The position numbers and the translations under genes are program-made. 64,000 bases of DNA from a candidate division TM6 bacterium GW2011_GWF2_32_72 (lineage in GTDB: Bacteria; Babelota; Babeliae; Babelales; CAIQNR01), in NCBI GenBank assembly GCA_945882015.1, contig CAMCVM010000002.1, positions 51,116 to 115,115 of the forward strand, in the 5' to 3' direction. The notes below the pieces were generated by a model. The model did not search any database. It was not told the DNA's origin and saw only the letters and a program-made list of their open reading frames with translations. Position 1 is the first letter of the stretch. Each line of letters opens with the position of its first letter. Shown here in pieces: positions 1-47,529 of this stretch.

Positions 1-582
1 AACAATACTGTTTTTCCTGCACTTACTAATACATCTGGACAAAGTTTTACACAACAAACAGTTACCAATCAAAAATTACCATGGCTTTCTAAAAAAACTG
101 TTCCAGTCCAAGACGTAAAAAATAATTATAACGCTATTTACACACCTTCTTTTAATGGTTCAAAAAGAGTGTTACCTAAAGGGCTTGAAGGACTTTATAT
201 GAATATCCCTATTACTATTACTGACCCTACTCAAGATGGAAAACTGTTAATTCGTCTGTATGAACAACCATTACTGCCTCAACCTGACTGGCTTAATTCT
301 GCAGAAGGAGTACTTACCATGACAAGAGTCTGTTTGGGTGATTTTACCAGTGGACTCATGCTGGGTGAACCAGTTTTTGACCCTGCGTTACAACTTATTT
401 TTAGACAAGCACTTGCAACCTTACCAAATCTTCCTGCAAGGTTACCGCAAACAGTGCTTGATAACTCTCCAGAAGCGCTTTTAAGACTTTCTCAAGAAGC
501 GCAACTGAGTTTAACACGGGAATATCTTGATCAAGCAACCCGACAAACAGCATCACAACAAATTGCCGCTCCTGCTGCATAA
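1..582 (+). CDS. C-terminal part of a hypothetical protein whose start lies upstream of the window
   Basis: Frame 1 is open from nt 1 to TAA 580-582. I translated 1-168 codon by codon (NNTVFPALTNTSGQSF...) and found no stop. The 169..582 track ORF (GTG start) is therefore probably only the tail of a longer gene. No family motif recognised. Confidence 0.5.
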   Translation, partial: NNTVFPALTNTSGQSFTQQTVTNQKLPWLSKKTVPVQDVKNNYNAIYTPSFNGSKRVLPKGLEGLYMNIPITITDPTQDGKLLIRLYEQPLLPQPDWLNSAEGVLTMTRVCLGDFTSGLMLGEPVFDPALQLIFRQALATLPNLPARLPQTVLDNSPEALLRLSQEAQLSLTREYLDQATRQTASQQIAAPAA

Positions 583-592
583 AGGAACTGTT

Positions 593-2872
593 ATGACTAT
601 TGTACAGCTATTTATTGTTGCCCTCTTGCATGCAACACAACTGCCATTACTTGCAGTACAAAAAACAGAGCATCAACAGAGAGCTACTTATTTAATTAAC
701 GCTATTTTTGACAAAACTGGAACACAATCAAAAACAAGTCATCAAGAAGCTATTGAACAAGCTATCCATAATCTCTTAAAGGCAAAAAATTATCAAAAAA
801 TAGCAATCGCCCAAAGAACCGCCCAATTATTGGAAAATCATATTAAAGAACGTCAAGAACTGTTAGAAAAAAACCCTGCAAACTTTTTAATAAAACATTC
901 ATTGTTTATTTTAAAAGCACAAAAAGGGTACTTAGAAGAATATTATGAAAAATTTTTAGCTACTGCTTCTTGGTTTGATACGTATTACATAACAGCACAA
1001 AGATGGTTGCAGCAACTGATCAACGCTGTTCAAAGTTTTTTTAACCCTGAACATAAAGCAGTTTCTTTTATAGAGCAAACAGCACTTGATCTTGATTTTT
1101 ACTGTTATTTTGAAGTTGAACACATTTTTACTGATTACCAAAAAACATTAATGCTGTTTGCCCAGCAAAAACAACATAGACTACCGGATATCATGGTGTT
1201 CTGGGCTCATCCATTACTACAGCAAGAAATCTTAAAGCGAGTTAAAAAAATTGATACTCCTGCAAAAATACAAGCTGAAGTTATAGCAGCCGAAACAGCT
1301 GAAGCTTTAGGAGAAGATGCTTTAATGGTTGGGGGAGACATTACGGAAAAAGCTGCAATGGAACTTGAGCTAGCCAGCAATGAAGCTGCTGAACAAGTTG
1401 CCACAAAGTTAACTCCTGCTGGAATTCTTGAAGATGTTTCAACGAGCCTTAAAGGTGACGCCGAAGCATTTGCAGAAGATGCTCCCAAACCAGGAGAGGA
1501 ACCAGCCCAGACAAGGACACAAGAACGACAAACACAACGAGCTCAAGAACGGGCAGAAGCTGCACAAAAAAATCAAGATGCTTTAAACGACCCTAGCGTT
1601 TCTAAGCTCAAAAAAGGGTACATCAAAACAAAAATGGCATTAAACATGGTCCTTGAAAAAACAGGGGTACAAAAAGGGCTTGATTGGATTGCTGACAATA
1701 TTACTGGACCGATCAGCGATGCCTATAAAAAATATATCTATGAAAGAATTTTAGAGCCGCTTGAAGATAATCCATTACACAACATGCTTGAAGAACTACC
1801 AGAGTGGCTACGTGGTATTGTTGATATTGGAATGCAAATGGGTCTCATGATGGGTGGCGGTCTTGTCACTTCATGGGTCAGTGAAGCAGATCAAAAAGTT
1901 TATTTACAATATGCACAACTGCAAACACAAATGACTGCTATTAATACTAAAATTATTACTCAGTTTGCCCAACAAAAAGCTCTTTTAATGAAAAGCAGTT
2001 CTGAGGCATTAAATACTGTTATCAATCTTATAAACCAAACACGTTCAAATCAGATTCAAACAGCAGCAGCTGAAATACTTTATCTTAATCAATCTACACT
2101 GAACACTCCTGCCAAAAGTGCTTTTGTTATAAAACCTTCTGCTGGAAACCCTACCGAAGACGCTTTACAAATTGACGAACGCTTTGCGCGTTCTATTATG
2201 CCAACTACAAACCTTAAAAGTATTTGGCGCAATATATTCAGATCGGGCAATTGGCAATATATGCCTGATTTGAAAATCTTTTACCAGACCCAGTTGGTTA
2301 AAATAGGTGGAAATAATCTTTTAGAACAAGCAACAGATTGTTTATACAATAGTGTTAACACAGAATATTACCCTGAAAAGATAGCTGCTTATGATATTGT
2401 TGTTGAATGTACCTTGATCAGTTATGATACATCGTGCCTTGTAGGAGTTATTTTTAATCATGCTCGCTGGATTTCAGGGGTCCCTGATACATTCAATCAA
2501 CATCGGTTTATGGGGTTATATGGAAACAATAATAATCTTTATGCTGTCCTTGAAGAGTCAAGCCCTTCAACTGATAAGCAAAGTCCAAACACATTGTCTC
2601 CTGCTTACAAAATTCTTGCTAACCCTAATAATTACACCCAAAAAAATATCGTTCTGCCTCCAGCCCCTGTAAAGCTTACCTTGGCGATTAATACCAGTGC
2701 TTTAAAAGTTACTGCAACCGTCAGTCAAACTACACAAAGTGGGAACAGTCCACTGGCTCAACTTGAAAGAACCGATCTACAAGCGCCTCTTTTTAACTAT
2801 CATGGTCTTGGTTTTATTGCTGCTGGGTGTATTGCTCAATTTAAAATTATTAAACCTCAAGAGTTAACGTAA
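593..2872 (+). CDS. hypothetical large protein (759 aa from ATG 593; track ORF starts at 527)
   Basis: Long ORF. ATG 593 has an aaagga SD at 581-586 with a 6-nt spacer and lies 10 nt after the previous stop, whereas a 527 start would overlap the previous ORF. It has an N-terminal hydrophobic segment (MTIVQLFIVALLHATQLPLLAV) and a Met/Gly-rich hydrophobic segment (GIVDIGMQMGLMMGGGLVTSWV). The C-terminal beta-rich module ends in HGLGFIAAGCIAQFKIIKP. Confidence 0.6.
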   Translation: MTIVQLFIVALLHATQLPLLAVQKTEHQQRATYLINAIFDKTGTQSKTSHQEAIEQAIHNLLKAKNYQKIAIAQRTAQLLENHIKERQELLEKNPANFLIKHSLFILKAQKGYLEEYYEKFLATASWFDTYYITAQRWLQQLINAVQSFFNPEHKAVSFIEQTALDLDFYCYFEVEHIFTDYQKTLMLFAQQKQHRLPDIMVFWAHPLLQQEILKRVKKIDTPAKIQAEVIAAETAEALGEDALMVGGDITEKAAMELELASNEAAEQVATKLTPAGILEDVSTSLKGDAEAFAEDAPKPGEEPAQTRTQERQTQRAQERAEAAQKNQDALNDPSVSKLKKGYIKTKMALNMVLEKTGVQKGLDWIADNITGPISDAYKKYIYERILEPLEDNPLHNMLEELPEWLRGIVDIGMQMGLMMGGGLVTSWVSEADQKVYLQYAQLQTQMTAINTKIITQFAQQKALLMKSSSEALNTVINLINQTRSNQIQTAAAEILYLNQSTLNTPAKSAFVIKPSAGNPTEDALQIDERFARSIMPTTNLKSIWRNIFRSGNWQYMPDLKIFYQTQLVKIGGNNLLEQATDCLYNSVNTEYYPEKIAAYDIVVECTLISYDTSCLVGVIFNHARWISGVPDTFNQHRFMGLYGNNNNLYAVLEESSPSTDKQSPNTLSPAYKILANPNNYTQKNIVLPPAPVKLTLAINTSALKVTATVSQTTQSGNSPLAQLERTDLQAPLFNYHGLGFIAAGCIAQFKIIKPQELT

Positions 2873-2886
2873 ATAAGGATTTATTC

Positions 2887-5800
2887 ATGAAAAAATATTG
2901 TATCCTTTTATTCATTATAGTGAGCCAGCTACCTGTTGCAATGCAAGCAGATACAGCTCATTCTCTTGATCTTAAAGCTGCTCCTCCTGCTGGGCTTGCT
3001 GATATTGATACTTATAAACAGCAAAGGGTTGCGCAAAATAACTACTTTTTTGAGCATTTACCAAAAACAACACAACTGCCTGATTCTATAACCACAGAAG
3101 TAAAACGAGTATTTACACCACTCTTACCGCTCCTTTCCCCACAATATAAAGACCAAACAGAGCAAGAACGGCAAACTCAAGTTCTGAATAACATTATAAG
3201 TTTTTATGGACTTTTATATGTAGTGGCACAAGAACAAGCAGCTACCACTACTACTCCAAACCCAACACTTACCCCTTTGCAATTAAAACAATCAAAAATT
3301 TGGCAAGACCATTTAAAAATTATGGCAGCAACTTCTTACAGCCAAGAAATTGCTCTGTTAAAAACAGTCCACGAAAACGAACTTGAGCTTTTTCCATTGT
3401 TACCACAATTTGAAGTTGCATATTACCAACCAACTTTTGCTCAAATACGTAAATCTTCAGAGCTTACTAGAATCTATCTTATCTTAATTGATCGCTTAAG
3501 AAATCGATTTTTAGACGGAATTACTCGTTCTTCTGGCACAACAGCTGATCCATTCAGTTCAATTTTACAAATGATTGATGCCACTACTGCTAGCTTAAAA
3601 ACTGCTTCTGTGAGTCAAAAAGATTCATTACAAGCAACATTAATGCAGCAAAAAAACCAACTCTTTCAACTGATAGAAGCCTTTAAAACGGGTTCTTTTT
3701 ACACCTTAACAGTACTGTTTGAAAATCTTGATTGGTCAAAAACGTATCCCGTTTCTTTTAAAGATCAGCATGAAAATGCCGCTACGTTCAAGCAAATTAT
3801 TCAAGGACCTTATAATTTTGATCAATATTTTTCATCTGATAAAAAAACAGGTATAGCAACCGTTAATCCTGTTTTTTCACTCATGTTTGAAACCGGCCCT
3901 GCTGTTCAAGGTTCAAATGAGCAAGGGCTTTTTTTTACTCCGCTAGGTAATGCTCTTTTTAGTGGTATGATCTCATACCAAACAACTACGTTACCCGATG
4001 GAACGTCTTTATATACCGGAACGTTTGAGTATCAAAAAACAACGGGTAATACTACTCAAATAACTATTGATCAATTTTTCACAGAACAAACCAGTACTGT
4101 TACCGTTAACAAGCAACCAATAGAACAGGCTTCTTTAGTCCCGACCATGACCTATATGGAACTGCTGTGCTTTACTGCAATGAAAATGCTGTATACCGAT
4201 ATTGCCGAAATTTTTATTGGTTCTAATTTGCCACTTGCATGCAAAGCTATGACCACCACCGATCTTCCTAACTTTATTGCACAACAACCTGAGGATTATT
4301 TGTTACTCAGTCACATCAATCGGTTACAAGACTTTTTTACCAATCAAGGATTAACTGATAACTCAGGCCAAACGCCAAGCGTGCAAAGTTGTAAAAGTTT
4401 TGGCAGATGGCTCAAAAAAGTTGCTGATACCGTTATTAATGGCATAAAAAAAGCCGCAACCGAAGTCTGGCATGGAATAGAAACTGCGGCAAAAGGTGCC
4501 TTTGCTGCAGTTAAAGATGTTGGTAATGCAATATGGCACGGAATGAAAGCAATTGGCGATGAAGTAGTTGCGCTCTATTATGCAAGCGCTATTGCTCCCA
4601 TGTTGTTTCAAGGAATTTCTGCAAGTGATGCGTTAAAACATGCTGCGAGTTATCAAAAAGCTGCAAACGATCAAATGAATGCTGCAACTTCTGACTTGAT
4701 GAAATCTGTTGGTCATATCGCTCAAGCAGCAGAAGGACTTGCTCATGCTGCCGGAGCTATAGCTATTAATGCCATGAGCGAAGGATTGAGTTTAATTGAT
4801 TCAAAAATTGGTAACGATATGCTCAACACATGGGATGCGGTGGCAAATGGCATTATCAATTTTGCAAAAGATTCAACTGATATGTTTATTTCTCAAACCA
4901 GTTCTATTGTTAAACTTTCTGCAGGGGCTATTGAGTTGGTTTCAAGCACTATCGCTTCTATTGAAACAGGATCGTTTTCAACATTAAAAGGCGAAATTAA
5001 GGACCTTGCAAAAAACACTGCTTCGGCAATTTTAAGTTATATCAGTTTGGCTATTTCACAAATTACCGACGCTCTTAAAAGTGCAATGACCGCTATTGGC
5101 TATTTTGTTCAAACATTAACAGACACTGTTGTTCAATTAAGCGCTGCTGTTGCGACCCTTGCTTATTACGGCTGGGCTGATGGATTTTCAACAGGCTTTA
5201 ATGAAATGCAAGCAAAAGTATCAGAACACCAAAGAATTATTTCAAGCATTATTACCACCGTTGTTTTAATTGCAGTTACCGTTGCAACTGGCGGAGCTGC
5301 AACTCCTTTTGCAGCGGGAATGCTTGCTATGAACGTTGGAATGATGGCTATGTCAATTGTAGGGGCTGGGCAAGCAGACCAATTAGCTATTGATAAAAAA
5401 GCAAAACAACACAAATTTGTTGAAGATTATAAACAGTACGTGATTGAAAATGCTTCAGTTATTCAAGGGTTCAATACACAAAAAGCAATAGAAGAACTGG
5501 TGCAATTACAAAATGAAACCATGAACCAAGAGCGAGGACTGTTCTATTATCAAAATTATGTTAATGCGATTTTTAATGGGACTGTTTCGGCAAAAGCTTA
5601 TGGCGTTGGTAATTTAATCAGCCATCAAACTGGAGTTTCTGATAGTACTGGCGTAATGGTTGCAGACTTAGGATCGTTATACGCGATACAAACAGGAAGA
5701 ATGTCGTTAACTCCAACTGGCGGTTTTGCTGTTTATAACAAAAGCAGAAATTCTTTTAGCCAGGAAGCGGCACTTGAGCCAATAATAATGAATCATCAAA

Positions 5801-7932
5801 CACAAGTAACAACAAATTTAACACAAACAGCTGATGACAACGGAGCATGGTTTCATCAAAAAGATCTTGCACTTATTCCATCCGGAGATGGATTAAAAGC
5901 TGATATTGTATGGCGATCATTATATGAATATGATGGCCCATTTTATATTGGAATTTATCTAACAGAAAGATTTATTGATACTCAAGCAGTTAATAATGCT
6001 TATAATAATTTAGCGCAAGTAATTACCCCAACCAGTGGCACTACAACTGCTGCTGCTTTTGATGCTGCTTGGCAAAAAGTAGAAACATTTGGTCGCTATT
6101 TAGTTGATTATGATCATCTTGCAAAAATGTTTGTTTGTTACCGTCAATCAGCTGCAAGTATTGATAATGCAGCAAACTCAATACCAAAATTAGGAATTTA
6201 TCAGCATGAAGCAACTGAACAAACAGTCGCTGCAAATAATGGATGGATCCAATCAAATATTGGTACAATTAACTTTAAGCGTGGAACCTGGTACCGCATG
6301 CAAGCAACCATAATTGGAACAAAATTAACGGTTAACTTCTGGGAACTTGCCGATGAGCAAGCAGCAAGAAATGCTACCACAAAAGATCCTGTACCAAATT
6401 CCGCACTTACTCAAACAACAACAATTGAACAAGCTCTTGTGCCGCAAGATGTTCTAGCATTGTCCGCATCAAAATATTTTGGCGGGTCAATGGGGGTAAT
6501 TACTTCAGGTGCAGCTGTTGAGTATATTGTGATTGAACCAACAAGAGTTTTAACTGTTAATTTACAAGGAACTACCTCACAGCTGACAACGCTAACCAAA
6601 CCAATAGAAAGTGCTGCACGAGTTACGGCTAATACAAAGCTTTCACAAATTCCTGGTATGAATCAAACGGAAACTGAACGATCTTTAAATTGGCAAAAAG
6701 AACTTGCAAGCCAAATGGGGCTCACATTTGGCAACTTGACGCTGACCGCGCTCGATCAAGAATCACTGATTCGATCAGAATTTATTTATCAAACAAAAGG
6801 AATTTTTGATCAAACAACGCCAGACTTTGTTGTTTTTGCCAAGACCAATCAAAACCCAAATGCTCAACAGGTAGGAATAAGCGCACTTGAAACTCCAAAA
6901 CCTCTTTATATTATAAGTTTAGTAACCAATCAAATTATCGATACAACAGGAAAAATAGTTGGACAAGTTGAGAGTGCTTTAAACTTATACCTGCAACAAC
7001 ATCCAAAATTGTCTGATAGTGTGATGACGCAATTACAAAATTCACAAAGAACATACTTCCAATCGATGAGTTTGCCATTAACTTTTGCAAATAGCACCCT
7101 GACAGCAGATGTAACACAAATGGGCAATGGACTGTATGTGTATAGTGCTCCAGCACTTGACCCGCGCATTCAAGGTAAAACTGACTACTTTGTAACAACA
7201 ACAAGTAATAGTGTAGGAATTACTGCAACAGGAGCTCCTTTAAAACTAAGTGATGCGCCAACAACCACAACAGGATTAGTCAGCTTAGTAACTGGACAAG
7301 TTTACACATTGCAACAAAATGGTAAAACAGCTTCGATACTTTCAACAAAAACAGTTGGTACAACCACAATAACTGATGCAAAAACAACGTATGCTGTTTA
7401 TCCTGATTATCAAGCAAAATTGACTCCGCAAGCAAAAGCTACCATAGAAGCTGTGCAGCAAATCTTTAATGACTTACAAAAAACAGTCGCTGCTGAACAA
7501 GCATTGCAAACAAAGGCTCAGAACACTCTTAATACCTTAAATACACAACTGACATCAGTAATTACCACCATAACTTTTGCAACAGGCGATGCTTTAACGG
7601 CACTTAAGTCTGCCCAAGTAGTTAGCCAAAAAGCGTTAACTGATCTTAATAATGCGCTTGCTGCATTTAACAAAGCTCTTCCTACCAATCAAGCAGGGCC
7701 AAACACACAAGTAGCAATTAACTTGAATAATGTTCTTGATCAAGCAAATAGTGCAATTACTGCTTGTCAAAACGCAATCACTACTTATAATAATACACCA
7801 GTTACGCAAACAAGTACTGATTACGGTTCTTCAAGTGACTCTGGCTATGGTTATGGAACCACCGATCAAAGTTATAATGCAAATTATGGAACTGACCAGG
7901 CAACTGATTATGGCTATGGATCAGGATATTAA
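2887..7932 (+). CDS. giant (1681 aa) secreted or membrane-interacting hypothetical protein
   Basis: Uninterrupted 5-kb ORF with a taagga SD 7 nt upstream. Sec-type signal peptide MKKYCILLFIIVSQLPVAMQA. An Ala-rich amphipathic block with recurring WHG lies at about nt 4408-5240. Two predicted TM helices lie at about nt 5248-5370. A beta-rich module lies at about nt 5899-6540. The C-terminal tail is rich in Gly/Tyr/Ser/Asp/Thr. Confidence 0.7.
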   Translation: MKKYCILLFIIVSQLPVAMQADTAHSLDLKAAPPAGLADIDTYKQQRVAQNNYFFEHLPKTTQLPDSITTEVKRVFTPLLPLLSPQYKDQTEQERQTQVLNNIISFYGLLYVVAQEQAATTTTPNPTLTPLQLKQSKIWQDHLKIMAATSYSQEIALLKTVHENELELFPLLPQFEVAYYQPTFAQIRKSSELTRIYLILIDRLRNRFLDGITRSSGTTADPFSSILQMIDATTASLKTASVSQKDSLQATLMQQKNQLFQLIEAFKTGSFYTLTVLFENLDWSKTYPVSFKDQHENAATFKQIIQGPYNFDQYFSSDKKTGIATVNPVFSLMFETGPAVQGSNEQGLFFTPLGNALFSGMISYQTTTLPDGTSLYTGTFEYQKTTGNTTQITIDQFFTEQTSTVTVNKQPIEQASLVPTMTYMELLCFTAMKMLYTDIAEIFIGSNLPLACKAMTTTDLPNFIAQQPEDYLLLSHINRLQDFFTNQGLTDNSGQTPSVQSCKSFGRWLKKVADTVINGIKKAATEVWHGIETAAKGAFAAVKDVGNAIWHGMKAIGDEVVALYYASAIAPMLFQGISASDALKHAASYQKAANDQMNAATSDLMKSVGHIAQAAEGLAHAAGAIAINAMSEGLSLIDSKIGNDMLNTWDAVANGIINFAKDSTDMFISQTSSIVKLSAGAIELVSSTIASIETGSFSTLKGEIKDLAKNTASAILSYISLAISQITDALKSAMTAIGYFVQTLTDTVVQLSAAVATLAYYGWADGFSTGFNEMQAKVSEHQRIISSIITTVVLIAVTVATGGAATPFAAGMLAMNVGMMAMSIVGAGQADQLAIDKKAKQHKFVEDYKQYVIENASVIQGFNTQKAIEELVQLQNETMNQERGLFYYQNYVNAIFNGTVSAKAYGVGNLISHQTGVSDSTGVMVADLGSLYAIQTGRMSLTPTGGFAVYNKSRNSFSQEAALEPIIMNHQTQVTTNLTQTADDNGAWFHQKDLALIPSGDGLKADIVWRSLYEYDGPFYIGIYLTERFIDTQAVNNAYNNLAQVITPTSGTTTAAAFDAAWQKVETFGRYLVDYDHLAKMFVCYRQSAASIDNAANSIPKLGIYQHEATEQTVAANNGWIQSNIGTINFKRGTWYRMQATIIGTKLTVNFWELADEQAARNATTKDPVPNSALTQTTTIEQALVPQDVLALSASKYFGGSMGVITSGAAVEYIVIEPTRVLTVNLQGTTSQLTTLTKPIESAARVTANTKLSQIPGMNQTETERSLNWQKELASQMGLTFGNLTLTALDQESLIRSEFIYQTKGIFDQTTPDFVVFAKTNQNPNAQQVGISALETPKPLYIISLVTNQIIDTTGKIVGQVESALNLYLQQHPKLSDSVMTQLQNSQRTYFQSMSLPLTFANSTLTADVTQMGNGLYVYSAPALDPRIQGKTDYFVTTTSNSVGITATGAPLKLSDAPTTTTGLVSLVTGQVYTLQQNGKTASILSTKTVGTTTITDAKTTYAVYPDYQAKLTPQAKATIEAVQQIFNDLQKTVAAEQALQTKAQNTLNTLNTQLTSVITTITFATGDALTALKSAQVVSQKALTDLNNALAAFNKALPTNQAGPNTQVAINLNNVLDQANSAITACQNAITTYNNTPVTQTSTDYGSSSDSGYGYGTTDQSYNANYGTDQATDYGYGSGY

Positions 7933-7940
7933 GGACTATT

Positions 7941-9206
7941 GTGTTACAAGAAACGGTTCAACAGCTACCATTGCTCCCTGGGGTCTATCTTTTTAAAAAT
8001 AAAGAAGGCACTATTATTTATATTGGAAAAGCAAAGTCTTTAAAAGCTCGGGTTAGTTCTTATTTTCAAAATACCACCGACTGGAAAGTCAAAGCGCTTT
8101 TGGATGAAGCAACCAGTCTTGAACATATTATTACCAACACCGAAACAGAAGCATTATTACTTGAAGCACAACTGGTGCAAGAGTATGATCCAAAATTTAA
8201 TGTGTTATTAAAAACTGGTCAGCCGTTTTTATATCTTATGATCAGCAACCAGTCATTGCCGCACCTAAAAATTGTTCGTAATAAAGATGACAAAGGAACC
8301 TATTTTGGTCCATTTATTCACAAGAGCCAAGCTCGCTCAGTTTTAAATTTTCTAACGCAAACCTTTCAGCTTTTTTGTTGTAATAAAAAAATTGAAAACG
8401 GATGCCTTGATTACCATTTAGGTAAATGTGCAGGAACCTGCATGAAACAATTTAACAAGGCTGATTACCTGTTTAGAATCTTACTGGTAGACGATGTATT
8501 GCGCCAAGACCACGAAAAGTTTTTAAACAGAATTGACACCAAAATAAAAGAATATAGTGATGCATTGTCCTTTGAAAAAGCACGCAACTTGTACCGTTAC
8601 AAACAAGATGTAACGACTATTTTTAAAACATTACAAGCAAAATATTCTGACACTAAGTATATTCATGAAATCGCCAAAGCAACTACACAGTCAGAATCAA
8701 TTGATAATTACTCAGAAATTGCCCAAGAGCTTAAGAGACTTTTACAGTTGCAAGGACTACCAGAAACTATTGATTGTTTTGATATTTCACATTTTCAAAG
8801 CCGCTTTCTGGTTGGTTCTTGTGTTCGATTTAGTCACGGCAAACCGGACAAAAATAAGTTCCGTCGCTTTATGATTAAAACCTTAGCCGAACAAAACGAT
8901 TATGCTGCATTGCAAGAAGTTGTCATGCGTCGCTACAAAGACTCTAAAGAGCTGCCTGATCTTATTTTAATTGATGGAGGCAAAGGTCAACGCAATGCAG
9001 TACTATCGTTACTTGGCAAAACCCCATGCATCAGTTTAGCAAAAAAAGAAGAACTGCTTTTTTCTGATTACCATCCAGACGGGTTTGCACTTGATGTTAA
9101 AACAGGAATTGGTAAACTACTGATTAGTTTACGCGATTATGCGCATCATTTTGCAATCAGCTATCATAAATTGTTAAGAAAAAAGGGATCTTTTAGTAAA
9201 AACTAA
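7941..9206 (+). CDS. uvrC: excinuclease ABC subunit C, short form (421 aa, no C-terminal HhH2 domain)
   Basis: GIY-YIG N-terminus LPLLPGVYLFKNKEGTIIYIGKAKSLKARVSSYF. UVR-like segment ALSFEKARNLYRYKQDV. Endonuclease-domain motifs IDCFDISH and LILIDGGKGQ. The protein ends just after YAHHFAISYHKLLRKK, where E. coli UvrC continues into (HhH)2. GTG start. Confidence 0.8.
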   Translation: MLQETVQQLPLLPGVYLFKNKEGTIIYIGKAKSLKARVSSYFQNTTDWKVKALLDEATSLEHIITNTETEALLLEAQLVQEYDPKFNVLLKTGQPFLYLMISNQSLPHLKIVRNKDDKGTYFGPFIHKSQARSVLNFLTQTFQLFCCNKKIENGCLDYHLGKCAGTCMKQFNKADYLFRILLVDDVLRQDHEKFLNRIDTKIKEYSDALSFEKARNLYRYKQDVTTIFKTLQAKYSDTKYIHEIAKATTQSESIDNYSEIAQELKRLLQLQGLPETIDCFDISHFQSRFLVGSCVRFSHGKPDKNKFRRFMIKTLAEQNDYAALQEVVMRRYKDSKELPDLILIDGGKGQRNAVLSLLGKTPCISLAKKEELLFSDYHPDGFALDVKTGIGKLLISLRDYAHHFAISYHKLLRKKGSFSKN

Positions 9207-9213
9207 AGGAGCA

Positions 9214-10395
9214 ATGGTAGCAATACCGTTACTCAAAAAAAGGAAATCGACAATGAAAAAAGCGCTTATCTTAAGTACAATATTACTATTATCTCATCAA
9301 AATACTTTTACTGCCGAAGCTGCTCAAGCTAATCCTAATGATGCTCAATTTAAACGTCTTGCTTCTTTTACTACAAACGGAAGTAGCAATTTTGCTTTGA
9401 GTCCCGATGGAACAACTATTGCAACGGCTAGGTTAGGTGCTCTTGCAGTTTTTAATACCACAACTAGAGAAGTCCAAGATTTAAATATTCCTGCACCTGA
9501 TGGCAGTAATAAAGGTTTTCTTGGAGTCTCTTTTGCCAATAGTGGCTCATTTGTTGGTAGCACTTACTATCCTGAAGTTTGGGATCCTAAAACAGGAAAG
9601 TGTTGGGTAGTTTACACTGAAAAAGAATCAAGTCAGTACGCTCGACTAAGTCCTAATGGAGACCAATTATTAACAATTGGAAGGACCCCTCCCGAGGTTC
9701 GTAATATTCCTGTAATTTTGACCGCTAGGATCTGGGATACTCAAACAAAAAAGCCTCTTTGTGTTTTAAGTGCTGACGTAAGATTGGGACTCTTGGGCCC
9801 TGATGATAATTTTTGGAGTGATAATGGAAAGCTTGTTGCACTTCCATTAGAAGATACTATTGGAGTTTGGGAAAGCAATAACCCTAAAGCCTTACATATG
9901 CTAAGGCCTACAGGATTAGTTACCGCAACTGCTTTTAGTCCGGATCAAACAATGCTTGCGAGTGCATCATATAATAACGCTATCAACGTTTGGTGTCTTA
10001 AAACAGGAAACTGTTTAAACGTTTTAGAGGGTCACACCCAAAGATGTCGCAACATTTTTTTCACCGAAGATGAGCAGCAAATTATAACTCCTTCGCTTGA
10101 TGGAACAGTCAGAGTCTGGAACCCTCAAACAGGCGAATGTTTAAAGGTTTTAAAAGGGCACAAAAGGGCAATTATTTCAGCTGATTTTTGTCAAAAAACA
10201 GGAACACTTGCAACTGGATCACAGGATAAAACGGTTAGGATTTGGGATGTTAACACAGGAAAGCTCTTACAAAGAGTGCCTTGCTCAGGCTGGGTTGATC
10301 AAGTTGCTTTTGATGAAAGGGGAGAAACGCTGGCAATTGGTTCAGGTAAACTTGATACGTTTATGACTATTCAAGTTTTAAAGAAAACTAAGTAA
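9214..10395 (+). CDS. secreted WD40-repeat protein (tandem paralogue 1)
   Basis: Basic plus hydrophobic leader KKRKSTMKKALILSTILLLSHQNTFTAEA. Classic WD40 units follow (GH...DGTVRVWNPQTGECLKVLKGH...SQDKTVRIWDVNTG). Confidence 0.8.
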   Translation: MVAIPLLKKRKSTMKKALILSTILLLSHQNTFTAEAAQANPNDAQFKRLASFTTNGSSNFALSPDGTTIATARLGALAVFNTTTREVQDLNIPAPDGSNKGFLGVSFANSGSFVGSTYYPEVWDPKTGKCWVVYTEKESSQYARLSPNGDQLLTIGRTPPEVRNIPVILTARIWDTQTKKPLCVLSADVRLGLLGPDDNFWSDNGKLVALPLEDTIGVWESNNPKALHMLRPTGLVTATAFSPDQTMLASASYNNAINVWCLKTGNCLNVLEGHTQRCRNIFFTEDEQQIITPSLDGTVRVWNPQTGECLKVLKGHKRAIISADFCQKTGTLATGSQDKTVRIWDVNTGKLLQRVPCSGWVDQVAFDERGETLAIGSGKLDTFMTIQVLKKTK

Positions 10396-10400
10396 AAAAC

Positions 10401-11858
10401 ATGATTAATAGGGTATTTGGTAAAAAAAGGAAATCAATAGCAAAAAAAGTGATTATCTTAAGTACAATATTACTATTATCTCATCAAGGCATTTTTACTG
10501 CCGAAGGTGAAACTTTTGCTAAAAGGCCTCAATTGGTACCTGTTGTTTCTTTTAAGAGCAAAAATGAGAATTTTGCTTTGAGCCCTAATGGAGGAACACT
10601 TGCAATGACCGATTCAGGCCGACTTACAATTCTCAATCTTGAAGCGAGAAACTGCGAAGAATTACGTGCTCCAGCCCCTCAGGGCTACAACAAATATTTC
10701 ACAGCTGTCTCTTTTGCTGACAACAACAACAGACTTTTAGTTATTTCTTCCCGCCCTGAAATCTGGGATCTTAAAACAAAAACATGTTTATGGGTCGTGC
10801 AAAATACAACAAAAGTTTGCCATGCTCAGCTAAGTCCTGATGGAAAGAACTTATTAACAATTGAAGAAACCGCTGCTACAGTCTGGAATGTTGATAAAAA
10901 AAAACCTCTTTATCGTTTAGAAGAAGCTATAGAATCGTACTTTTTAAATACTCATAATTCTTTTTGGAGTAATAATGGAAAGCTTATTGCGCTTCCAACA
11001 TCAAAAGATTTTGCTGTTATAGTTTTTAGTGATGATGGATCTAAAACCCCACGCACTTTATCAGGACATACAAGAGAAGTTATTTCAGTTGCTTTTAGTC
11101 CGAATCAAACAATGCTTGCGACTGCATCATTTGATAAAACTATTAGACTTTGCTGCCTTGAAACAGGAAACTGTTTAAACGTTTTAGAGGGTCACACCAA
11201 ATTATGTCCTAACATGTTTTTCACCGAAGATGAGCAGCAAGTTATAACTCCTTCGGTTGATGGAACAGTCAGAGTCTGGGACCCTCAAACAGGCCAATGT
11301 TTAAAGGTTTTAGAAGGGCACGAACAGGTAATTACTACAAGTGCATTTTGTCCAAAAACAGGAATGCTTGTTACTGGATCACGGGATAAAACGGTTAGGA
11401 TTTGGGATGTTGAAGGAGAGCTCTTACAAATTGTGCCTTGCTCAAGCTGTGTTGATAAAGTTGCTTTCAATGAAGATGGAACAATGCTAGCAATTGGTTC
11501 AGGTAAAAATAGTAAGTCAGCTATGACTATTCAAGTTTTTACTCTCTTGCAACCTAAAAATACATATTTTGAGTTACTTGATAGTATCTTAGATAAGAGT
11601 CAACCTTATAGTGAAAGATCAAAAAAAGAACTTTCAGATTTACGAAAAAAAGAACAAGATAAAAAAGTAACCATAGAAAGATTGTGGCAGTTATTTGGCA
11701 CACAAATAAACTCCCCTGAGTTTGATATTGATAAAGCACAATTATTACTCCGTCAGCTTGAATATTTAGGAGTGGTAATTCCAGAAGAAGTGAATCGACT
11801 CATGCTGCAGAATACCCCTGACGACAAATTATTCCCATTAAACGAACAAAGAAAATAA
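10401..11858 (+). CDS. secreted WD40-repeat protein (tandem paralogue 2, with about 90-aa C-terminal extension)
   Basis: The leader KKRKSIAKKVIILSTILLLSHQGIFTAEG contains a 33-nt stretch identical to paralogue 1 (10454-10486 = 9268-9300). WD40 units include DGTVRVWDPQTGQCLKVLEGH and SRDKTVRIWDV. An extra helical K/E-rich tail is present. Confidence 0.8.
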   Translation: MINRVFGKKRKSIAKKVIILSTILLLSHQGIFTAEGETFAKRPQLVPVVSFKSKNENFALSPNGGTLAMTDSGRLTILNLEARNCEELRAPAPQGYNKYFTAVSFADNNNRLLVISSRPEIWDLKTKTCLWVVQNTTKVCHAQLSPDGKNLLTIEETAATVWNVDKKKPLYRLEEAIESYFLNTHNSFWSNNGKLIALPTSKDFAVIVFSDDGSKTPRTLSGHTREVISVAFSPNQTMLATASFDKTIRLCCLETGNCLNVLEGHTKLCPNMFFTEDEQQVITPSVDGTVRVWDPQTGQCLKVLEGHEQVITTSAFCPKTGMLVTGSRDKTVRIWDVEGELLQIVPCSSCVDKVAFNEDGTMLAIGSGKNSKSAMTIQVFTLLQPKNTYFELLDSILDKSQPYSERSKKELSDLRKKEQDKKVTIERLWQLFGTQINSPEFDIDKAQLLLRQLEYLGVVIPEEVNRLMLQNTPDDKLFPLNEQRK

Positions 11859-11876
11859 TTAAAAAAAGGATTGATA

Positions 11877-13007
11877 ATGAAAGTTAAATTACTGTTTTTG
11901 CTGTCTATAGCTACCACTGAACTGTTTTCAGCTAGTGCTGGCCCCTCCGCTATAACTCGTGGGCGTGCCGACTATATTGCCCAATTTTTTTGTAACGATC
12001 ACCATGATCAAATGCCAGAACGACATCTAGTTTATTCGGGCGATAGACTTCTTGTGGCTGATCGCAGAGCTGTAAATGGGCCCGCAATTACACAAGTTAC
12101 TCATGAATTAAAAGTTATTCCTGAAACAAATTTTGACAGCAGAAGCCCCTTTAAGTCAAGATGGCCTGTTACTTCATTATTAAGCACGCAAGGCGGCAGT
12201 CTGATTATTGGCGCTACAGATTACACATCAGGACGCGGTACTTTAACTATTGTTCCTTCTTGGGCGGTAAAAGAAGAATTAACAAGGTATCTAGGTATTG
12301 AGTACTCACAAAGAGACCCTGGTGGCCGTCCAACTTGTAAACCCGCAACAGCTGGTGACCTATTTGCGTTTGGACACCGAACAGGAGTTAGATTACATAG
12401 AATCGATAATGGCACATGGGCAAACGATCAAAGTATAGATGAAAGTAAAGAGGGCCGTAAAAAGAAAGATTTTGAATGGGGCCTGGGTCATCTGACAGCG
12501 ACTGGAATAGATTCGTTAAGTTTTGCTGCCGATGATAATACTTGTTTAGCTGCATCTTTTAAACCAGAGGGGGAACCTAGTGTTGTAAAGGTTTTTGATT
12601 TAGCACAATCAAAAATTCAATCGACTATTGAACCTGCTGACGCAGAAAATTTATCAAGCAAAAAAAAAGCAATATTTTCTCCTGAAGATCCAAATCTTTT
12701 AGCGGTTGTTGGGGCTGCTGCTGTAAACTTGTATGATCTAAGAAACAAGAAAAAGGAACCAGTCACAGCAATTGAATTTCATACTCATCAGGAACCAACT
12801 TCTTGCAGTTGGGATAGCGAAACAAGACTCATTGTAACTTCAAGCCCCAATCAAGTAATGGTAATTAATCCAAAAACTACGGATTATTTCTGTTTTGAAT
12901 TACTCAAAGACAACCATCCTAACGCAACAGCACTTGTACCCAAGGATGGAAAAGGTGATCTTTTCGTGGCAGGAACTCAACACCTTCATAGAATAGAATT
13001 ACCCTGA
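11877..13007 (+). CDS. secreted hypothetical protein, possibly a divergent beta-propeller
   Basis: ATG 11877 is preceded by an aaagga SD (track ORF uses TTG 11871). Signal peptide MKVKLLFLLSIATTELFSASAG. Repeated beta-strand-like ends (VVKVFDL, AVNLYDL, VMVINP) occur, but there are no clean WD motifs. Confidence 0.5.
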   Translation: MKVKLLFLLSIATTELFSASAGPSAITRGRADYIAQFFCNDHHDQMPERHLVYSGDRLLVADRRAVNGPAITQVTHELKVIPETNFDSRSPFKSRWPVTSLLSTQGGSLIIGATDYTSGRGTLTIVPSWAVKEELTRYLGIEYSQRDPGGRPTCKPATAGDLFAFGHRTGVRLHRIDNGTWANDQSIDESKEGRKKKDFEWGLGHLTATGIDSLSFAADDNTCLAASFKPEGEPSVVKVFDLAQSKIQSTIEPADAENLSSKKKAIFSPEDPNLLAVVGAAAVNLYDLRNKKKEPVTAIEFHTHQEPTSCSWDSETRLIVTSSPNQVMVINPKTTDYFCFELLKDNHPNATALVPKDGKGDLFVAGTQHLHRIELP

Positions 13008-17629: not shown

Positions 17630-19174
17630 TTATTTATAAAGTAGTCGCTTATAAAGATCTACCACTGCTTCAATTGGCATTTTTTCAAGATCTTTCAAGG
17701 AAATCTTCTGTCGATCAAGCCGACGTCGCCACAGTACAAGGTCGTTATCCTGAGAAAGGGTAAACAGTGTTTTGCCGTCTTCTGAAAATACTGTACACTT
17801 TAGTGGGTCGTTAAGACCGACTGAATGGTGGCAATGAGTACACACTCCTGTCTGAACATCAGTTAATACAAACGCTCCCGACAGGAAAGAATTAATTAAT
17901 TGCTTTGCGTCTGGTGAAAATAGTAAAAAATATGAATCAGCAGACCTGCTGAAAGATTTAATAAACTCTTTTTTTTGATGATCCCATAACTCAACATTAC
18001 CATTTTCAAAAGCAATTGCTAAAAGTTCTCCATCACGAGATAAAGCAAAGTTCTTTACAGGTTCAGGTAGCATCAAATCACCGATAAATTGACTGTTTTG
18101 AGTATTCCATAAACTGATTTTAAAAAAACTATCTCGTGCCGCTACTAAGCATTTGGCAGGAGAAAAACAAATTTTATGATCACAAGTAACCGGTATAAAA
18201 AAATCGCTTACTCTTTTTGCTTCTTTGATGTCCCATATTGTTACTTGATTCCTGATAGAAGAAGTTACAACCCTTTCATCATCTACAAAATAAAAGACAC
18301 TTACTGGGGCATTATGGGGGAGTAGTACGTCAGGAGTGATTGATCCTGATTCGATTTCCCATAACTGCGCTTCATACTTGTTTGAAATTACTCCAAGTAG
18401 TCGCCCATTTGGAGAAAGTCTCATCGAATTTATGACCGAAGCATCCTTAGGATCCATGTAAACTTTTGCTCTATCAGATGGAGCTGCACAGTCTACAAGT
18501 GGGGCAGCAAAATCTTCTTTATTTTTTAAGACTTTAACTTCTCCATCGACTAAAACAACTATAATAGAGCTTCCATCAGGATTAGAGGCGATCGATTGAA
18601 CCTGTAATTGTTCCATCTTAGTCCTAGACCATCCTGCCGCCCAGCTATATAAATCTTCTGTTAGACGTTTTTTTAATAGTGGATTTTGGTTAATTGCTTT
18701 ATATGTTTCTTGATCTATTTCTTTTTCTATCTGCTGAGTAAACCTTTCAGCTAATTCATTATAAATAAGATTTAGTGATGAAAACGATTCCCCCCTCCAT
18801 GTCTGTGGTTTAATAATACAATATGCTGCTGTATTATACCAAAGTACTAAATTTCTTAAGTCCATATTATTTAATCTTTCTGGAAAACCTTCAGGATTTT
18901 GCGAAAACTTTGCTAATTCTTCTAATGCTAATCCATGAACTTTAGAACTAGGCAGTTCAATTGGGTTTTGATTATTAACAGAAGAACGTGAAGCTAAAGA
19001 AAAATCAAGCCGCTCAAAATGTTTTGCCGATACTCGAGGTAATCTGATTTCTTTTCCCCCTACATACACGGCAAGGAATTCCTCTTCTAATGATTCATTT
19101 TCTGCTGTATACAAAGCGAAAGTCCAAAAGAAAAATACAAACCCAGTGCGTACCATATGATTGATTGATTGCAT
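17630..19174 (-). CDS. WD40/beta-propeller protein with N-terminal hydrophobic leader and about 200-aa N-domain
   Basis: Leader VRTGFVFFFWTFALYTA. The C-terminal half has repeated propeller-blade endings (QVTIWDI, KISLWNT, NVELWDH, DLVLWRR). Confidence 0.65.
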   Translation of the reverse strand: MQSINHMVRTGFVFFFWTFALYTAENESLEEEFLAVYVGGKEIRLPRVSAKHFERLDFSLASRSSVNNQNPIELPSSKVHGLALEELAKFSQNPEGFPERLNNMDLRNLVLWYNTAAYCIIKPQTWRGESFSSLNLIYNELAERFTQQIEKEIDQETYKAINQNPLLKKRLTEDLYSWAAGWSRTKMEQLQVQSIASNPDGSSIIVVLVDGEVKVLKNKEDFAAPLVDCAAPSDRAKVYMDPKDASVINSMRLSPNGRLLGVISNKYEAQLWEIESGSITPDVLLPHNAPVSVFYFVDDERVVTSSIRNQVTIWDIKEAKRVSDFFIPVTCDHKICFSPAKCLVAARDSFFKISLWNTQNSQFIGDLMLPEPVKNFALSRDGELLAIAFENGNVELWDHQKKEFIKSFSRSADSYFLLFSPDAKQLINSFLSGAFVLTDVQTGVCTHCHHSVGLNDPLKCTVFSEDGKTLFTLSQDNDLVLWRRRLDRQKISLKDLEKMPIEAVVDLYKRLLYK

Positions 19175-21277: not shown

Positions 21278-24200
21278 TCAATTTCCTTTAGCTTTTCTTA
21301 ATTCGTTCAAGTTAGCTTGAACTACACTTTCAAATGATAGGACAGCTGCCTGTGCAACGTCAAAGTCTTTTTGCCCCTTTAAATGCTGAGCTTTATTAAG
21401 AAGTTCAATATAAACTCTTGTCAATTGAAGTAACTGTTGAAATTCAGGCACAGTTGTTGCAGCATTAATCATTTTCCTTAACAGCAATATACATGCAAGA
21501 AACTGACTGGATTGAGCCTTAAAATCGTGTTCCTCCAACTTTTCATGCGGAATATCAAAAAGAATGCTTAAGAGCTCTCCCCAATCGTTCAGTTTTTCAG
21601 TATAATCTTTGATTTGTTCAGATGTAAATTGAACCTTAGTGTCATCATTTATTACATCTTCAGTTGCTAATAAATCGCGTTGAAAATCTGTTAACCTTTT
21701 GCTAAAAAATTCTGGTCTTGTAATTAATAATTTATTCGATTCTTTAATGAGCGTTCTAATAAGCGTAAGTTTTTCCTGTATTTCAGCTTCTATTTTTGTG
21801 TCAGTTTCTTGCAATTGACCGCCGTGCCCCTGCTCAAGCCTAACTGCATTCTTCGATAAAAATTGCATTATATTCTCAAGTTGTTTTCTTGTTTCTTCAC
21901 GTAACGTTTTATCTGGCGCAGATAGAGATAGAGCAACGGCATTCAATAACATTGCGTAGTAAGAAGTAACACTCATTAAATCTAGTCTTTTTTGAAGTTC
22001 GGTTGTCCCGGCATGTGTTGTTATCATGGCACCTAATGGAACTGTCCACCAATCAAGTTCTTCAATAAGTTTGTTGCGTGTAGAATCACTACTCAAAAGT
22101 TCATACCCTTTAACAGAATCTATCAAAACAGCTTCTGCCCACCTTTTAAGTCCTTGGTTAAATTGATCAACCACTCTTTCAGCCTCACTTTTTGGTTGTT
22201 GCTGACCTTTTAAAGATTTTAATATGGATGCTGAATCTTGTGGCTTTAATTTTTCTTGAACTTTTACTTCAGGCTTTTTAACGGTCTCATTTCTGATTTG
22301 TAATGCTGCAGGTTCATCCGGCAAAAGACATTCTTCTTTAGCGTGACGCATCCGATATTCAAGTCTTTTTTTATCATTCTCTGCTAATGAGGATTGGTTT
22401 AGATAGTATTCAATTGCTGCTTCAATTCCCTCAAAATAACCTCCCTCTGTAACCATCTCGATTGCTTGACCAATTGCTTCTTCTTTCTTAGATTTATATG
22501 AACCTTTATTAAATAAGTTAGAATATGGACCTTTTATAATTGCTCTAGCAGCCACCATTCTTGTTTCAAAATCATTATTTTCATTTTGTTGCGCTCTAAA
22601 AAGCTTTTCTAACATATTGGCCGTTATACTTCCTGCTGTATTCATACGATTATATAGGTCATCGCCTAATATATTTTTCATTATCGTTTGAGGATCTTGT
22701 TTTTTTAATATTTTTGCTGGTTGTCCTTTTGCATTTCTTGCAGCTTGTCGATCTAAGTATTCTCTTTCTCTTCGATCTTTTTCTGCTTGCAAAGCAGCGG
22801 AATCGGCACTAACCTGGTCGCCTTTTTTCTTTGGTTTTTTGGCTTTAGAAGAATCTTGCCCTTGAAGATTTACTGGTTTTGGTTGCTCTAATTGTTGTGC
22901 CAATGTAACTTCTTCTAATCTTTGCGCTGTAGCTCTTGCTGAAGCTTCTCTGTCTGCTTGATCTTGTTGTGCTTTTTCTTGAGCTCTTTCAATTTCTTCT
23001 CTTGCTGCTTTATCTTTTTGTGCTTTTTCAAGTGCTTGTTGTTCTTGCTCTTTTTTTTCTCTTTTTTTTGCTTTTGCGGCTTTTTGCATCTCTCTTTTTC
23101 TTCTATTTCTTGCAGCATTTGAAAGTGTCCCAGGTCCCGTTTGTTGATCTTGCACTTGATCATCTGCTGATTCTTCATCACTTTCTACTGGTTGCTGCGT
23201 TGCGCTTTGCGCTTTCTGTGTTTCTTCTTGTGCTCTTCTTTTGGCCTCTTCTTGCTCCTGCTCTTGCATTTGACGAGCGAGAGCTTCATCTTGTTCTATT
23301 TGAAGCCTTTTTAATTCTTCTTTTTCTTCATACTCATCAATCATTAATTGTTCTAAAGCATCCTGCGCAAGCTCTTGTTGAGCTTGTGGAATATCAAAAG
23401 CTGTTACTCCCATTGCTATAAGATCTGCATCTGGTATTCCTTTAAGAATTAAATCTTTTAAATCATCTGGTGACATGGCCTGTTTAACAGGTCTCTGGGT
23501 AGCTCTGTTAGTAGAGGCTTGCGATTGTTCACCAGAAGGGTTCATTTCTTCTGAGGTCAAAAGTGATGGTCCTTGAAATTCAAATCGAGTTGAAGGTTTT
23601 TGTTGAGGTAAAGAAGCTGCTTGCTGCTGGGCGGCTTGGAGCAATTGCTCCATTTGCTGTCGCAGTTCAGCTACTGTTCTGCTCAAATCAGCTATTTTTG
23701 CTTCTTGTACTTGTATTTGTAGTGCAGTTGGTTGTTGTTCAGCTATCCTTGCTGCTTGCATTTCTAGCGCAGTTGGTTGTTGTTGAAAACCAAATGGCAA
23801 TAAAGGAAAGCCTGTTTGTTGCGGGTATAATCTACTATATCCAGAAACCGTTTGTGAGTTTTGCGGCACCAATGTTTTAGCAAAAAGAGTAGGTTGATTT
23901 TGAAGTGGCCTTACTGGACCTTGTCCTCTCTCTCTTCTTACTACCGAATTTTCTCTTTTCCTCTGGTCAGCCTTCTGTAAAAGCCGTAAAAGTTGTGGTC
24001 CTTGATTTGTTACAGCGGCTGCTTGAGTTGATCCTGTCGCTACAGTAAAAGGTTGACTTGAGGGACTCAGCAATTCTCTTAAGTTAAGAATATATTTATC
24101 TTTATTTTTTTCTGGTAGCAATTGACCATTTACTAGTGCAGCTCCTGAATAATAAGTTCCATTATCATTGAAAATAGATACGAAAGGAGAATTTTGTTCT

Positions 24201-24307
24201 ACAGAAAGCTTTATATAATCACTCAAAGTTGACTTTTGGTCTTCAAGAGTAACTTGCTTTGCTACAAGAGCAAGAATGTCATCTTTTGGACCTTTAAAAG
24301 TGAGCAA
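21278..24307 (-). CDS. large (1009 aa) charged, low-complexity hypothetical protein; the only available start is non-ATG (TTG)
   Basis: Long ORF with Q-rich and E/K/Q/A-rich coiled-coil-like regions and a helical C-terminal domain. There is no ATG near the 5' end. The frame continues upstream to an in-frame TAA (see feature 24347-24463). Confidence 0.6.
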   Translation of the reverse strand: MLTFKGPKDDILALVAKQVTLEDQKSTLSDYIKLSVEQNSPFVSIFNDNGTYYSGAALVNGQLLPEKNKDKYILNLRELLSPSSQPFTVATGSTQAAAVTNQGPQLLRLLQKADQRKRENSVVRRERGQGPVRPLQNQPTLFAKTLVPQNSQTVSGYSRLYPQQTGFPLLPFGFQQQPTALEMQAARIAEQQPTALQIQVQEAKIADLSRTVAELRQQMEQLLQAAQQQAASLPQQKPSTRFEFQGPSLLTSEEMNPSGEQSQASTNRATQRPVKQAMSPDDLKDLILKGIPDADLIAMGVTAFDIPQAQQELAQDALEQLMIDEYEEKEELKRLQIEQDEALARQMQEQEQEEAKRRAQEETQKAQSATQQPVESDEESADDQVQDQQTGPGTLSNAARNRRKREMQKAAKAKKREKKEQEQQALEKAQKDKAAREEIERAQEKAQQDQADREASARATAQRLEEVTLAQQLEQPKPVNLQGQDSSKAKKPKKKGDQVSADSAALQAEKDRREREYLDRQAARNAKGQPAKILKKQDPQTIMKNILGDDLYNRMNTAGSITANMLEKLFRAQQNENNDFETRMVAARAIIKGPYSNLFNKGSYKSKKEEAIGQAIEMVTEGGYFEGIEAAIEYYLNQSSLAENDKKRLEYRMRHAKEECLLPDEPAALQIRNETVKKPEVKVQEKLKPQDSASILKSLKGQQQPKSEAERVVDQFNQGLKRWAEAVLIDSVKGYELLSSDSTRNKLIEELDWWTVPLGAMITTHAGTTELQKRLDLMSVTSYYAMLLNAVALSLSAPDKTLREETRKQLENIMQFLSKNAVRLEQGHGGQLQETDTKIEAEIQEKLTLIRTLIKESNKLLITRPEFFSKRLTDFQRDLLATEDVINDDTKVQFTSEQIKDYTEKLNDWGELLSILFDIPHEKLEEHDFKAQSSQFLACILLLRKMINAATTVPEFQQLLQLTRVYIELLNKAQHLKGQKDFDVAQAAVLSFESVVQANLNELRKAKGN

Positions 24308-26294: not shown

Positions 26295-26324
26295 GTTTCA
26301 ATGATTATTCAAAAGGAACTCTCT

Positions 26325-31299: not shown

Positions 31300-31301
31300 T
31301 T

Positions 31302-31862: not shown

Positions 31863-31873
31863 AAAGGTTTATC

Positions 31874-47468: not shown

Positions 47469-47529
47469 AGCAGCTCCTTTTTTGCTTAAGTATGTCAAAA
47501 TACTAATTTTTTTTTTAACAATTAAGCAA

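Follow-up and report, generated by a model that had tools for sequence, protein, structure and literature searches.

What kind of system is encoded by three adjacent genes for very large, unclassified proteins in a bacterium of the Dependentiae (TM6)? The Dependentiae are widespread obligate parasites of protists, and to our knowledge their means of host entry and manipulation are not known. We analysed a stretch of 64,000 nucleotides (nt) of contig CAMCVM010000002.1 (the window), at whose 5' edge the three genes lie, here named A, B and C. Judged from their sequences, they are an operon-like trio encoding very large, predicted exported proteins without a characterised family, and they constitute a real, unannotated, lineage-specific three-gene unit that is conserved in every related locus examined. 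B and C look as if they share a homologous core of ~350-450 residues, which is newly recognised here by profile-profile alignment and ends in a predicted concanavalin-A-like β-sandwich. Our tentative preference is to regard the three proteins as a complex anchored in the cell envelope.

Gene layout and conservation of the A-B-C unit

All three genes are read from the forward strand. Gene A is represented by its 3' end (1-582, 193 codons; match to the A-family hidden Markov model (HMM) with E = 1.9e-99), followed by gene B (593-2872, 759 residues), which is found in all related loci, and gene C (2887-7932, 1681 residues). These coordinates, given for three co-directional open reading frames (ORFs) in a preliminary description of the locus, agree with the ORF listing. 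The gaps of 10 nt between A and B and 14 nt between B and C, together with the Shine-Dalgarno sequence described for each downstream start, were recovered as well, with AGGA at 583-586 lying 6 nt 5' of the ATG at 593 and AGGA at 2876-2879 preceding the ATG at 2887. For gene B an alternative TTG start exists at 527, which would prepend a basic n-region to the hydrophobic leader. A promoter and terminator scan returned sites not in excess of shuffled sequence.

Gene A is complete in a 96-98% identical contig (L001:1745-5617), where it encodes 1290 residues with a signal-like N-terminal leader; of the conserved blocks of the A family, the third falls within the part that the window retains. Profile-profile alignment of A with B and C by hhalign gave values of ≤1%, ruling out A as a third paralogue, a relationship that had been put forward for checking.

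Searches of the three proteins and of distant orthologues as long as 2716 residues against Pfam, NCBIfam and PHROGs gave no credible match, and neither did profile searches against PDB sequences, in line with the earlier failure to place B or C in a characterised family. The closest approach besides a tape-measure profile discussed below was a near-threshold match of α-synuclein (E = 0.35) to the Ala-rich amphipathic stretch of C, which is probably compositional. Literature searches found no description of the three proteins. Together, the genes define three protein families without annotation and a new domain common to two of them.

Relatives were found both by direct and by profile-based searches. 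Word-indexed searches returned six relatives of B (P0001-P0006) and 11 of C (P0007-P0017), and a further homologue search using the B alignment added none. An exhaustive search with a profile of the C core (residues 775-1225) retrieved 116 representative clusters (50% identity) at E ≤ 1e-3, 111 of them at E ≤ 1e-10. Nearly all of these relatives are 1300-2700 residues long, and an N-terminal hydrophobic leader is present in 90 of the 95 full-length members. Within the window, a scan with local HMMs detected no additional copies of A, B or C.

The gene order is constant: a gene for an M23 peptidase on the opposite strand, then A, B and C, in 16 of 16 related loci with sufficient flanks (L001, L002, L004-L012, L014, L016, L018, L020 and L021), with uvrC usually next. 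Local HMMs identified the genes upstream of C as A and B orthologues even where their products have shrunk to 431-601 residues (A) and 398-630 residues (B), and gaps of 10-14 nt or overlaps of 4 nt between the three genes are retained across lineages. Compared to the L002 locus, the M23 peptidase and UvrC are 65% and 70% identical, A, B and C 42%, 37% and 44%, so that the trio diverges about twice as much as its neighbours; the lengths of its products vary two- to three-fold. The M23 protein resembles the endopeptidases MepM, ShyA and Pgp3. In two of the loci the M23 gene that faces A-B-C is directly followed by a PilO/GspM-like gene (L006:4460-5044 and L007:2569-3147).

Domain structure of proteins B and C

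Protein B begins with a hydrophobic leader (residues 1-24, 593-664) that was identified by hydropathy and has signal-like counterparts in orthologues; in the L005 orthologue it contains a lipobox, MILFLLTGC. The following part (residues 26-400, 668-1792) is nearly all helical in the AlphaFold2 (AF2) model, at low confidence, and is variable, being missing or shorter in short-form orthologues according to HMM coverage. Residues 407-428 (1811-1876) form a Gly/Met segment, delimited by conservation, hydropathy and hhalign, with a conserved helix pattern G413xxxG417xxxG421, an invariant Asp and a nearly invariant Gln. In the AF2 model it is followed by a single long helix of ~71 residues (431-501, 1883-2095) and by a predicted β-sandwich of the concanavalin-A-like class (residues ~505-755, 2105-2857), in which the motif NxxRWxSG is invariant. 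The mean predicted local distance difference test score (pLDDT) of this model is 46 overall and 60-78 in the β-module that succeeds the helices.

Protein C starts with a Sec-type leader consisting of MKK and a hydrophobic run (2887-2946), recognised by hydropathy and by its recurrence in the family; signal-peptide cleavage was judged by eye. The AF2 model of C, which covered residues 21-1220, shows an N-terminal α/β domain (residues 25-487, 2959-4347) with pLDDT 70-90, long helices in the middle with pLDDT below 50 and a β-module with pLDDT 55-83. The α/β domain is lineage-specific, remaining unaligned in distant orthologues in BLASTP, and a Foldseek search of PDB and BFVD found no match to it at E ≤ 1e-3.

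Residues 500-780 of C (4384-5226) form an Ala-rich, amphipathic helical region, as judged from composition, helical moment and the long helices of the low-confidence model. This region had been described as about 270 residues of Ala-rich amphipathic repeats with a recurring WHG. Its richness in Ala (17.5%) and its amphipathicity were borne out, the mean helical moment being 1.18 compared to 0.45-1.03 in the other measured segments, but a search for internal repeats detected none, and there are just two WHG motifs, which start at residues 528 and 550.

Directly behind it lies a hydrophobic helical hairpin (residues 781-828, 5227-5370), which is built, in this order, from an HxR flank, a first hydrophobic helix (TM1, Kyte-Doolittle value 2.2), an invariant GGAA(T)P turn, a second helix (TM2) and QxD. 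Flank, TM1 and turn are conserved at 2.3-2.45 bits, TM2 at 1.97 bits and the sandwich at 2.2 bits; the slightly higher conservation of the former compared to the sandwich argues that the hairpin is more than a passive anchor. In distant C members the hairpin unit is duplicated and contains stretches with Kyte-Doolittle values above 3. An analysis of the parity of transmembrane segments in these members was dropped as unreliable without a proper predictor. The preliminary description had assigned a Met/Gly/Ala-rich hydrophobic hairpin to both proteins, which holds for C, but not for B, where the 19-residue Kyte-Doolittle mean of residues 407-428 stays below 1.4, too low for a transmembrane helix on its own, and the segment is rather a GxxxGxxxG helix.

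The hairpin of C is succeeded by a long helical segment in the AF2 model (residues 829-915, 5371-5631) and by a conserved linker (ADxGSLYG...QE.A..P) with a predicted concanavalin-A-like β-sandwich (residues 916-1220, 5632-6546), which is delineated by conservation, AF2, Foldseek and hhalign to the core of B. A second β-rich region follows (residues 1225-1475, 6559-7311), to which BLASTP alignments with distant orthologues extend as far as residue 1473, and then a helical amphipathic C-terminal region (residues ~1510-1640, 7414-7806; helical moment 1.03). The protein ends in a Tyr/Gly/Ser-rich tail (7807-7929, ...DYGYGSGY). Tails rich in Gly, Ser and aromatic residues are common in the C family (P0085-P0187), further examples being ...AAGSSGFSF and ...SGDISFGG. 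Gly makes up 18% of the last 12 residues compared to 5.7% overall, and in 67 of 95 members at least one of the last eight residues is aromatic; the tail may be a sorting or docking peptide.

Foldseek searches of PDB with the low-confidence model of the B sandwich matched legume lectins, ERGIC-53, VIP36, a neurexin LNS domain and galectin with a probability of ~1.0 and E-values from 5e-4 to 1e-2. The sandwich of C, likewise a low-confidence model, matched the same concanavalin-A-like class more weakly, and three entries were common to both modules, namely 3lcp_A (ERGIC-53/LMAN1), 4gkx_A and the SARS-CoV-2 spike chain 7od3_A. A resemblance of both modules to concanavalin/LamG-like domains of the DUF1080 type, suggested earlier from the strand pattern, is supported at the level of the fold by these low-confidence models; in Pfam, no DUF1080, LamG or lectin model matched B, C or their orthologues at E ≤ 1.

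A proposed core shared by B and C

Hydropathy and the AF2 models agree with the module order that had been proposed for both proteins, i.e. a leader, a mostly helical part, a Gly/Met/Ala-rich segment and a β-rich module. BLASTP of B against C yielded nothing significant, so the relationship was assessed by profile-profile alignment, and here the result depended strongly on alignment depth. With shallow alignments hhalign reached 4% when the complete proteins were compared and 19% with their C-terminal halves. We enlarged the B alignment with genes adjoining diverse C homologues and with a metagenome scan, and used 108 segments from the representative search as C-core alignment. With 10 B sequences the values were 6-27%, with 12 they rose to 79% (local) and 95% (global) and with 18 they reached 91% in local mode (E = 1.1e-6, 333 collinear columns) and 96% in global mode (P = 9e-10). 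Reversing the columns of the C alignment as a control gave 0.5-0.9%, and a second profile-profile comparison with 18 B sequences and only 10 C sequences resulted in 66% (E = 5.5e-5). The profile alignment of B and C that had been suggested as a check of their paralogy thus came out in its favour, and from the shallow scores alone paralogy would have been wrongly dismissed.

The common core would comprise, in collinear order, a helix rich in small residues of the Gly-zipper kind, a helix of ~70-90 residues and the sandwich, with the strands DIVxEC../..GxIF and GxGFIAxG..xxFKI. The two strand pairs that had been noticed by inspection as matching between B and C are aligned to each other by the profile-profile alignment, which also places the Gly/Met segment of B opposite the second helix of the C hairpin. 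C alone adds a strongly hydrophobic first helix, converting the element to a conserved two-helix hairpin.

A proposed cell-anchored envelope complex and its alternatives

From sequence and models taken together we tentatively favour, with limited confidence, a Dependentiae-specific, cell-anchored envelope complex of A, B and C whose lectin-like domains would be held off the membrane. During Sec export of C the hairpin would halt transfer and anchor C in the cytoplasmic membrane of the bacterium itself, so that both large parts of C would end up outside the cytoplasm. B, a predicted lipoprotein in at least one lineage, would pair with C via the core of helix and sandwich that is homologous between them, and its Gly-zipper helix would pack on the hairpin of C; A would be a third, unrelated partner. 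The long helices would keep the two lectin-like sandwiches ~10 nm away from the membrane, where the ligand that they bind might be a glycan or a protein, located either in the envelope or, via the variable outer parts, on a host.

What argues for this complex is the hydrophobicity of TM1, whose Kyte-Doolittle value (2.2 here, above 3 in distant members) should bar C from passing Sec freely and favours its stop-transfer anchoring. The lipobox of the L005 B orthologue combined with the hydrophobic hairpin of C points to anchoring in the cell as well, rather than to membrane-inserting, host-directed proteins, which had been part of an earlier guess. Further support comes from the N-terminal export leaders of all three proteins, the coupled spacing of their genes, the A-B-C order in every related locus examined, a divergence that outpaces the neighbouring genes, the B-C core homology, the concanavalin-A-like models of both sandwiches and the conservation of the hairpin. 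The rapid change in sequence and the variable size of the proteins suggest outer parts that are turned towards a host or the environment.

Several points weigh against the complex. The homology of B and C is read from profile-profile scores, and neither the C-core profile run against 1.84 billion representatives nor the local B and C HMMs gave any cross-detection between the two families. The confidence of the AF2 models is low (pLDDT 46 for B and <50 for the middle of C), making helix lengths and pairing tentative. The charge pattern of the hairpin, with basic flanks and an uncharged tight turn, is the reverse of the positive-inside arrangement if the turn is cytoplasmic, and by analogy resembles hairpins that insert from one side, such as those of toxins and Inc proteins. 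Moreover, synteny is broadly conserved in the phylum and uvrC is usually adjacent too, so gene order alone is no proof of a complex. Finally, the lengths of A and B co-vary (r = 0.84), but this correlation mainly splits two clades and is confounded by phylogeny.

The charge pattern leads to the alternative that fares best, though it is rather unlikely: a secreted tripartite pore or translocon that inserts into the membrane of a host food vacuole or organelle, by the logic of the ClyA-family systems Nhe/Hbl and AhlABC/SmhABC and of YaxAB. In such a system C would carry the hairpin, shielded in the soluble state by the amphipathic helices, B would contribute a shallow membrane-binding helix and A would be the non-hydrophobic component. 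The graded hydrophobicity of the three adjacent gene products (absent from A, weak in B and amounting to a full hairpin in C) would fit these roles, as would the ~270 residues of strongly amphipathic helices encoded directly 5' of the hairpin, the basic flanks and uncharged turn, a conservation of the hairpin beyond that of a mere anchor and the fast evolution of A, B and C. The components of Nhe and Hbl, too, are exported by Sec despite their hydrophobic hairpins. As far as the excerpted text of the Chromulinavorax report goes, this bacterium enters a food vacuole and has reached the cytoplasm within 3 h, and the only machinery of this kind described is Sec and proteins for type IV pilus assembly (PMC6561590); both points would fit a secreted complex. 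However, neither sequence nor fold matched the ClyA/Hbl family or any toxin, and the proteins are 3-6 times the size of ClyA-type toxins. TM1 should stay in the bacterial inner membrane on Sec export, one B orthologue is a predicted lipoprotein, and a route across the outer membrane would be needed as well. The bolder version, in which A, B and C are a widely conserved tripartite machine that breaches or remodels host membranes for vacuole escape or organelle contact, with C delivering the hairpin, A and B as its partners and the sandwiches targeting host glycans, is unlikely.

Distinctly unlikely is an inward-looking scaffold of the inner membrane, whose lectin-like domains would bind peptidoglycan glycan strands and act with the M23 DD-endopeptidase to remodel the wall, determine cell shape or serve the unusual division cycle of the Dependentiae. 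The divergent M23 gene adjoins the trio in 16 of 16 loci whose upstream flank is long enough, including those in which the upstream context differs, its product is similar to known endopeptidases (MepM, ShyA, Pgp3), the modelled helix of ~70-90 residues would put the sandwich near the wall, and the presence of the trio in every related locus examined is what a core cell function predicts. Yet the functionally unrelated uvrC adjoins almost as constantly, which weakens the argument from synteny. Compared to the M23 protein, the trio shows much faster divergence and far greater variation in size, which would be odd for core wall machinery, and Pfam scans matched no LysM, SPOR, OmpA-like or SH3b domain.

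That the genes form no functional unit at all, but encode independent surface or periplasmic proteins brought together by a phylum-wide gene order, the likeness of B and C being that of two unrelated lectin folds, would agree with the lack of a B-C relationship in BLASTP and HMM-to-sequence searches, with the shallow hhalign values of 4-27% and with the broad conservation of gene order around the locus, but is very unlikely in view of the climb of hhalign with depth to 91-96% over ~330 collinear columns against <1% in the reversed control, the gaps of 10-14 nt or overlaps of 4 nt kept across lineages and the fact that the A, B and C families always co-occurred.

The order of the trio is kept across deep divergence while its products evolve fast, are unannotated and combine a hairpin with two lectin-like domains, which makes it a concrete candidate for the apparatus that the phylum uses for host contact or in its envelope. 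The three families and the shared domain could enter family databases, and the few cultured strains allow tests.

Comparison with known systems

The B and C modules are modelled as two-sheet jelly-roll sandwiches, and their best Foldseek matches are concanavalin-A-like lectins and glucanases (legume lectins, ERGIC-53/VIP36, LamG/LNS domains and galectins). They differ from these in sequence, at an identity of ~10% or less and with no match to a Pfam lectin, LamG or DUF1080 model, and in architecture, as the domain is preceded by a membrane helix and then by a very long helix; we found no description of such a layout.

The likeness to the ClyA-family systems (Nhe/Hbl, AhlABC/SmhABC) and to YaxAB/XaxAB consists in adjacent partner genes for proteins with a hairpin, with a shorter membrane element and with none, and in the amphipathic helices flanking the hairpin; it is an analogy only. 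In contrast to these toxins, the proteins have no match to the family in Pfam, NCBIfam, PDB sequences or Foldseek, measure 400-2700 residues compared to ~350-450 and contain additional lectin-like and N-terminal domains.

With chlamydial Inc proteins C has in common a bilobed hydrophobic domain of ~45 residues (781-828) with a short uncharged turn and an origin from an obligate intracellular bacterium. Inc proteins, however, are small type III substrates without a Sec leader, whereas C has 1681 residues, a Sec-type leader and large domains that flank the hairpin on either side. The genes of the window that were scanned include some similar to those of type II secretion systems and type IV pili, but none of a type III system. 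The excerpts of two Dependentiae genome papers mention genes for Sec, type II secretion and type IV pili and, within those excerpts, no type III, IV or VI secretion system (PMC6561590, PMC4776705).

Phage tape-measure proteins resemble C in their long helices and hydrophobic segments, and phrog_4200, a tape-measure family, gave a weak match (E = 4e-4) to residues 624-790 of C (4756-5256 of the window), spanning the amphipathic helices and the first hairpin helix, besides low-probability Foldseek matches. The stretch is compositionally biased, so this match, too, is probably compositional, and the locus is surrounded by uvrC and by genes for WD40 proteins and an M23 peptidase, not by phage genes. 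With a single partial PHROG match and no tail-gene context, the assignment of C as a tape-measure protein was rejected.

Gene neighbourhood and source organism

A short uvrC (7941-9206, forward strand) begins 8 nt 3' of gene C and has its own AAGGA; its identification is supported by synteny. The product of 421 residues contains the GIY-YIG and RNase H-like endonuclease domains only. uvrC is probably co-transcribed with A, B and C; we regard it as a conserved downstream neighbour outside the system they form.

The source organism is a Babeliales/Dependentiae (TM6) bacterium. Cluster mates of B, C, enolase and GatB (≥90% identity) are annotated 'Candidatus Babeliales bacterium', and one distant relative of C is annotated 'Candidatus Dependentiae bacterium'. 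A cluster at 26301-34414 consists of a GspC-like gene, a gene for a GspD secretin, a PilM-like gene, a small ORF and a second gene for a GspD secretin. According to the excerpted text of PMC4776705, two gspD copies per genome are a hallmark of TM6/Dependentiae, one of which may replace PilQ. Three related metagenome-assembled genomes with the operon (L001, L002 and L004) are titled 'Proteobacteria/Pseudomonadota bacterium', while near-identical proteins are titled 'Candidatus Babeliales' elsewhere. In view of the two gspD genes in the window and the annotations of the cluster mates, the 'Proteobacteria' labels are probably wrong and were set aside in favour of Babeliales/Dependentiae.

The G+C content of the window is ~36%. 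Downstream of uvrC, three tandem genes (9214-13007) encode WD40/β-propeller proteins, each with an N-terminal hydrophobic leader, and another WD40 protein is encoded at 17630-19174 on the reverse strand; the leader-bearing ones appear to be exported, eukaryote-like repeat proteins. The reverse strand also carries an ORF of 1009 residues (21278-24307), rich in Gln, Glu, Lys and Ala, without a leader or a family match, which sits where the AT skew of the window is most extreme (-0.35). Finally, two neighbouring paralogous genes on the same strand (44747-47498) encode products with weak similarity to a clostripain-like peptidase.

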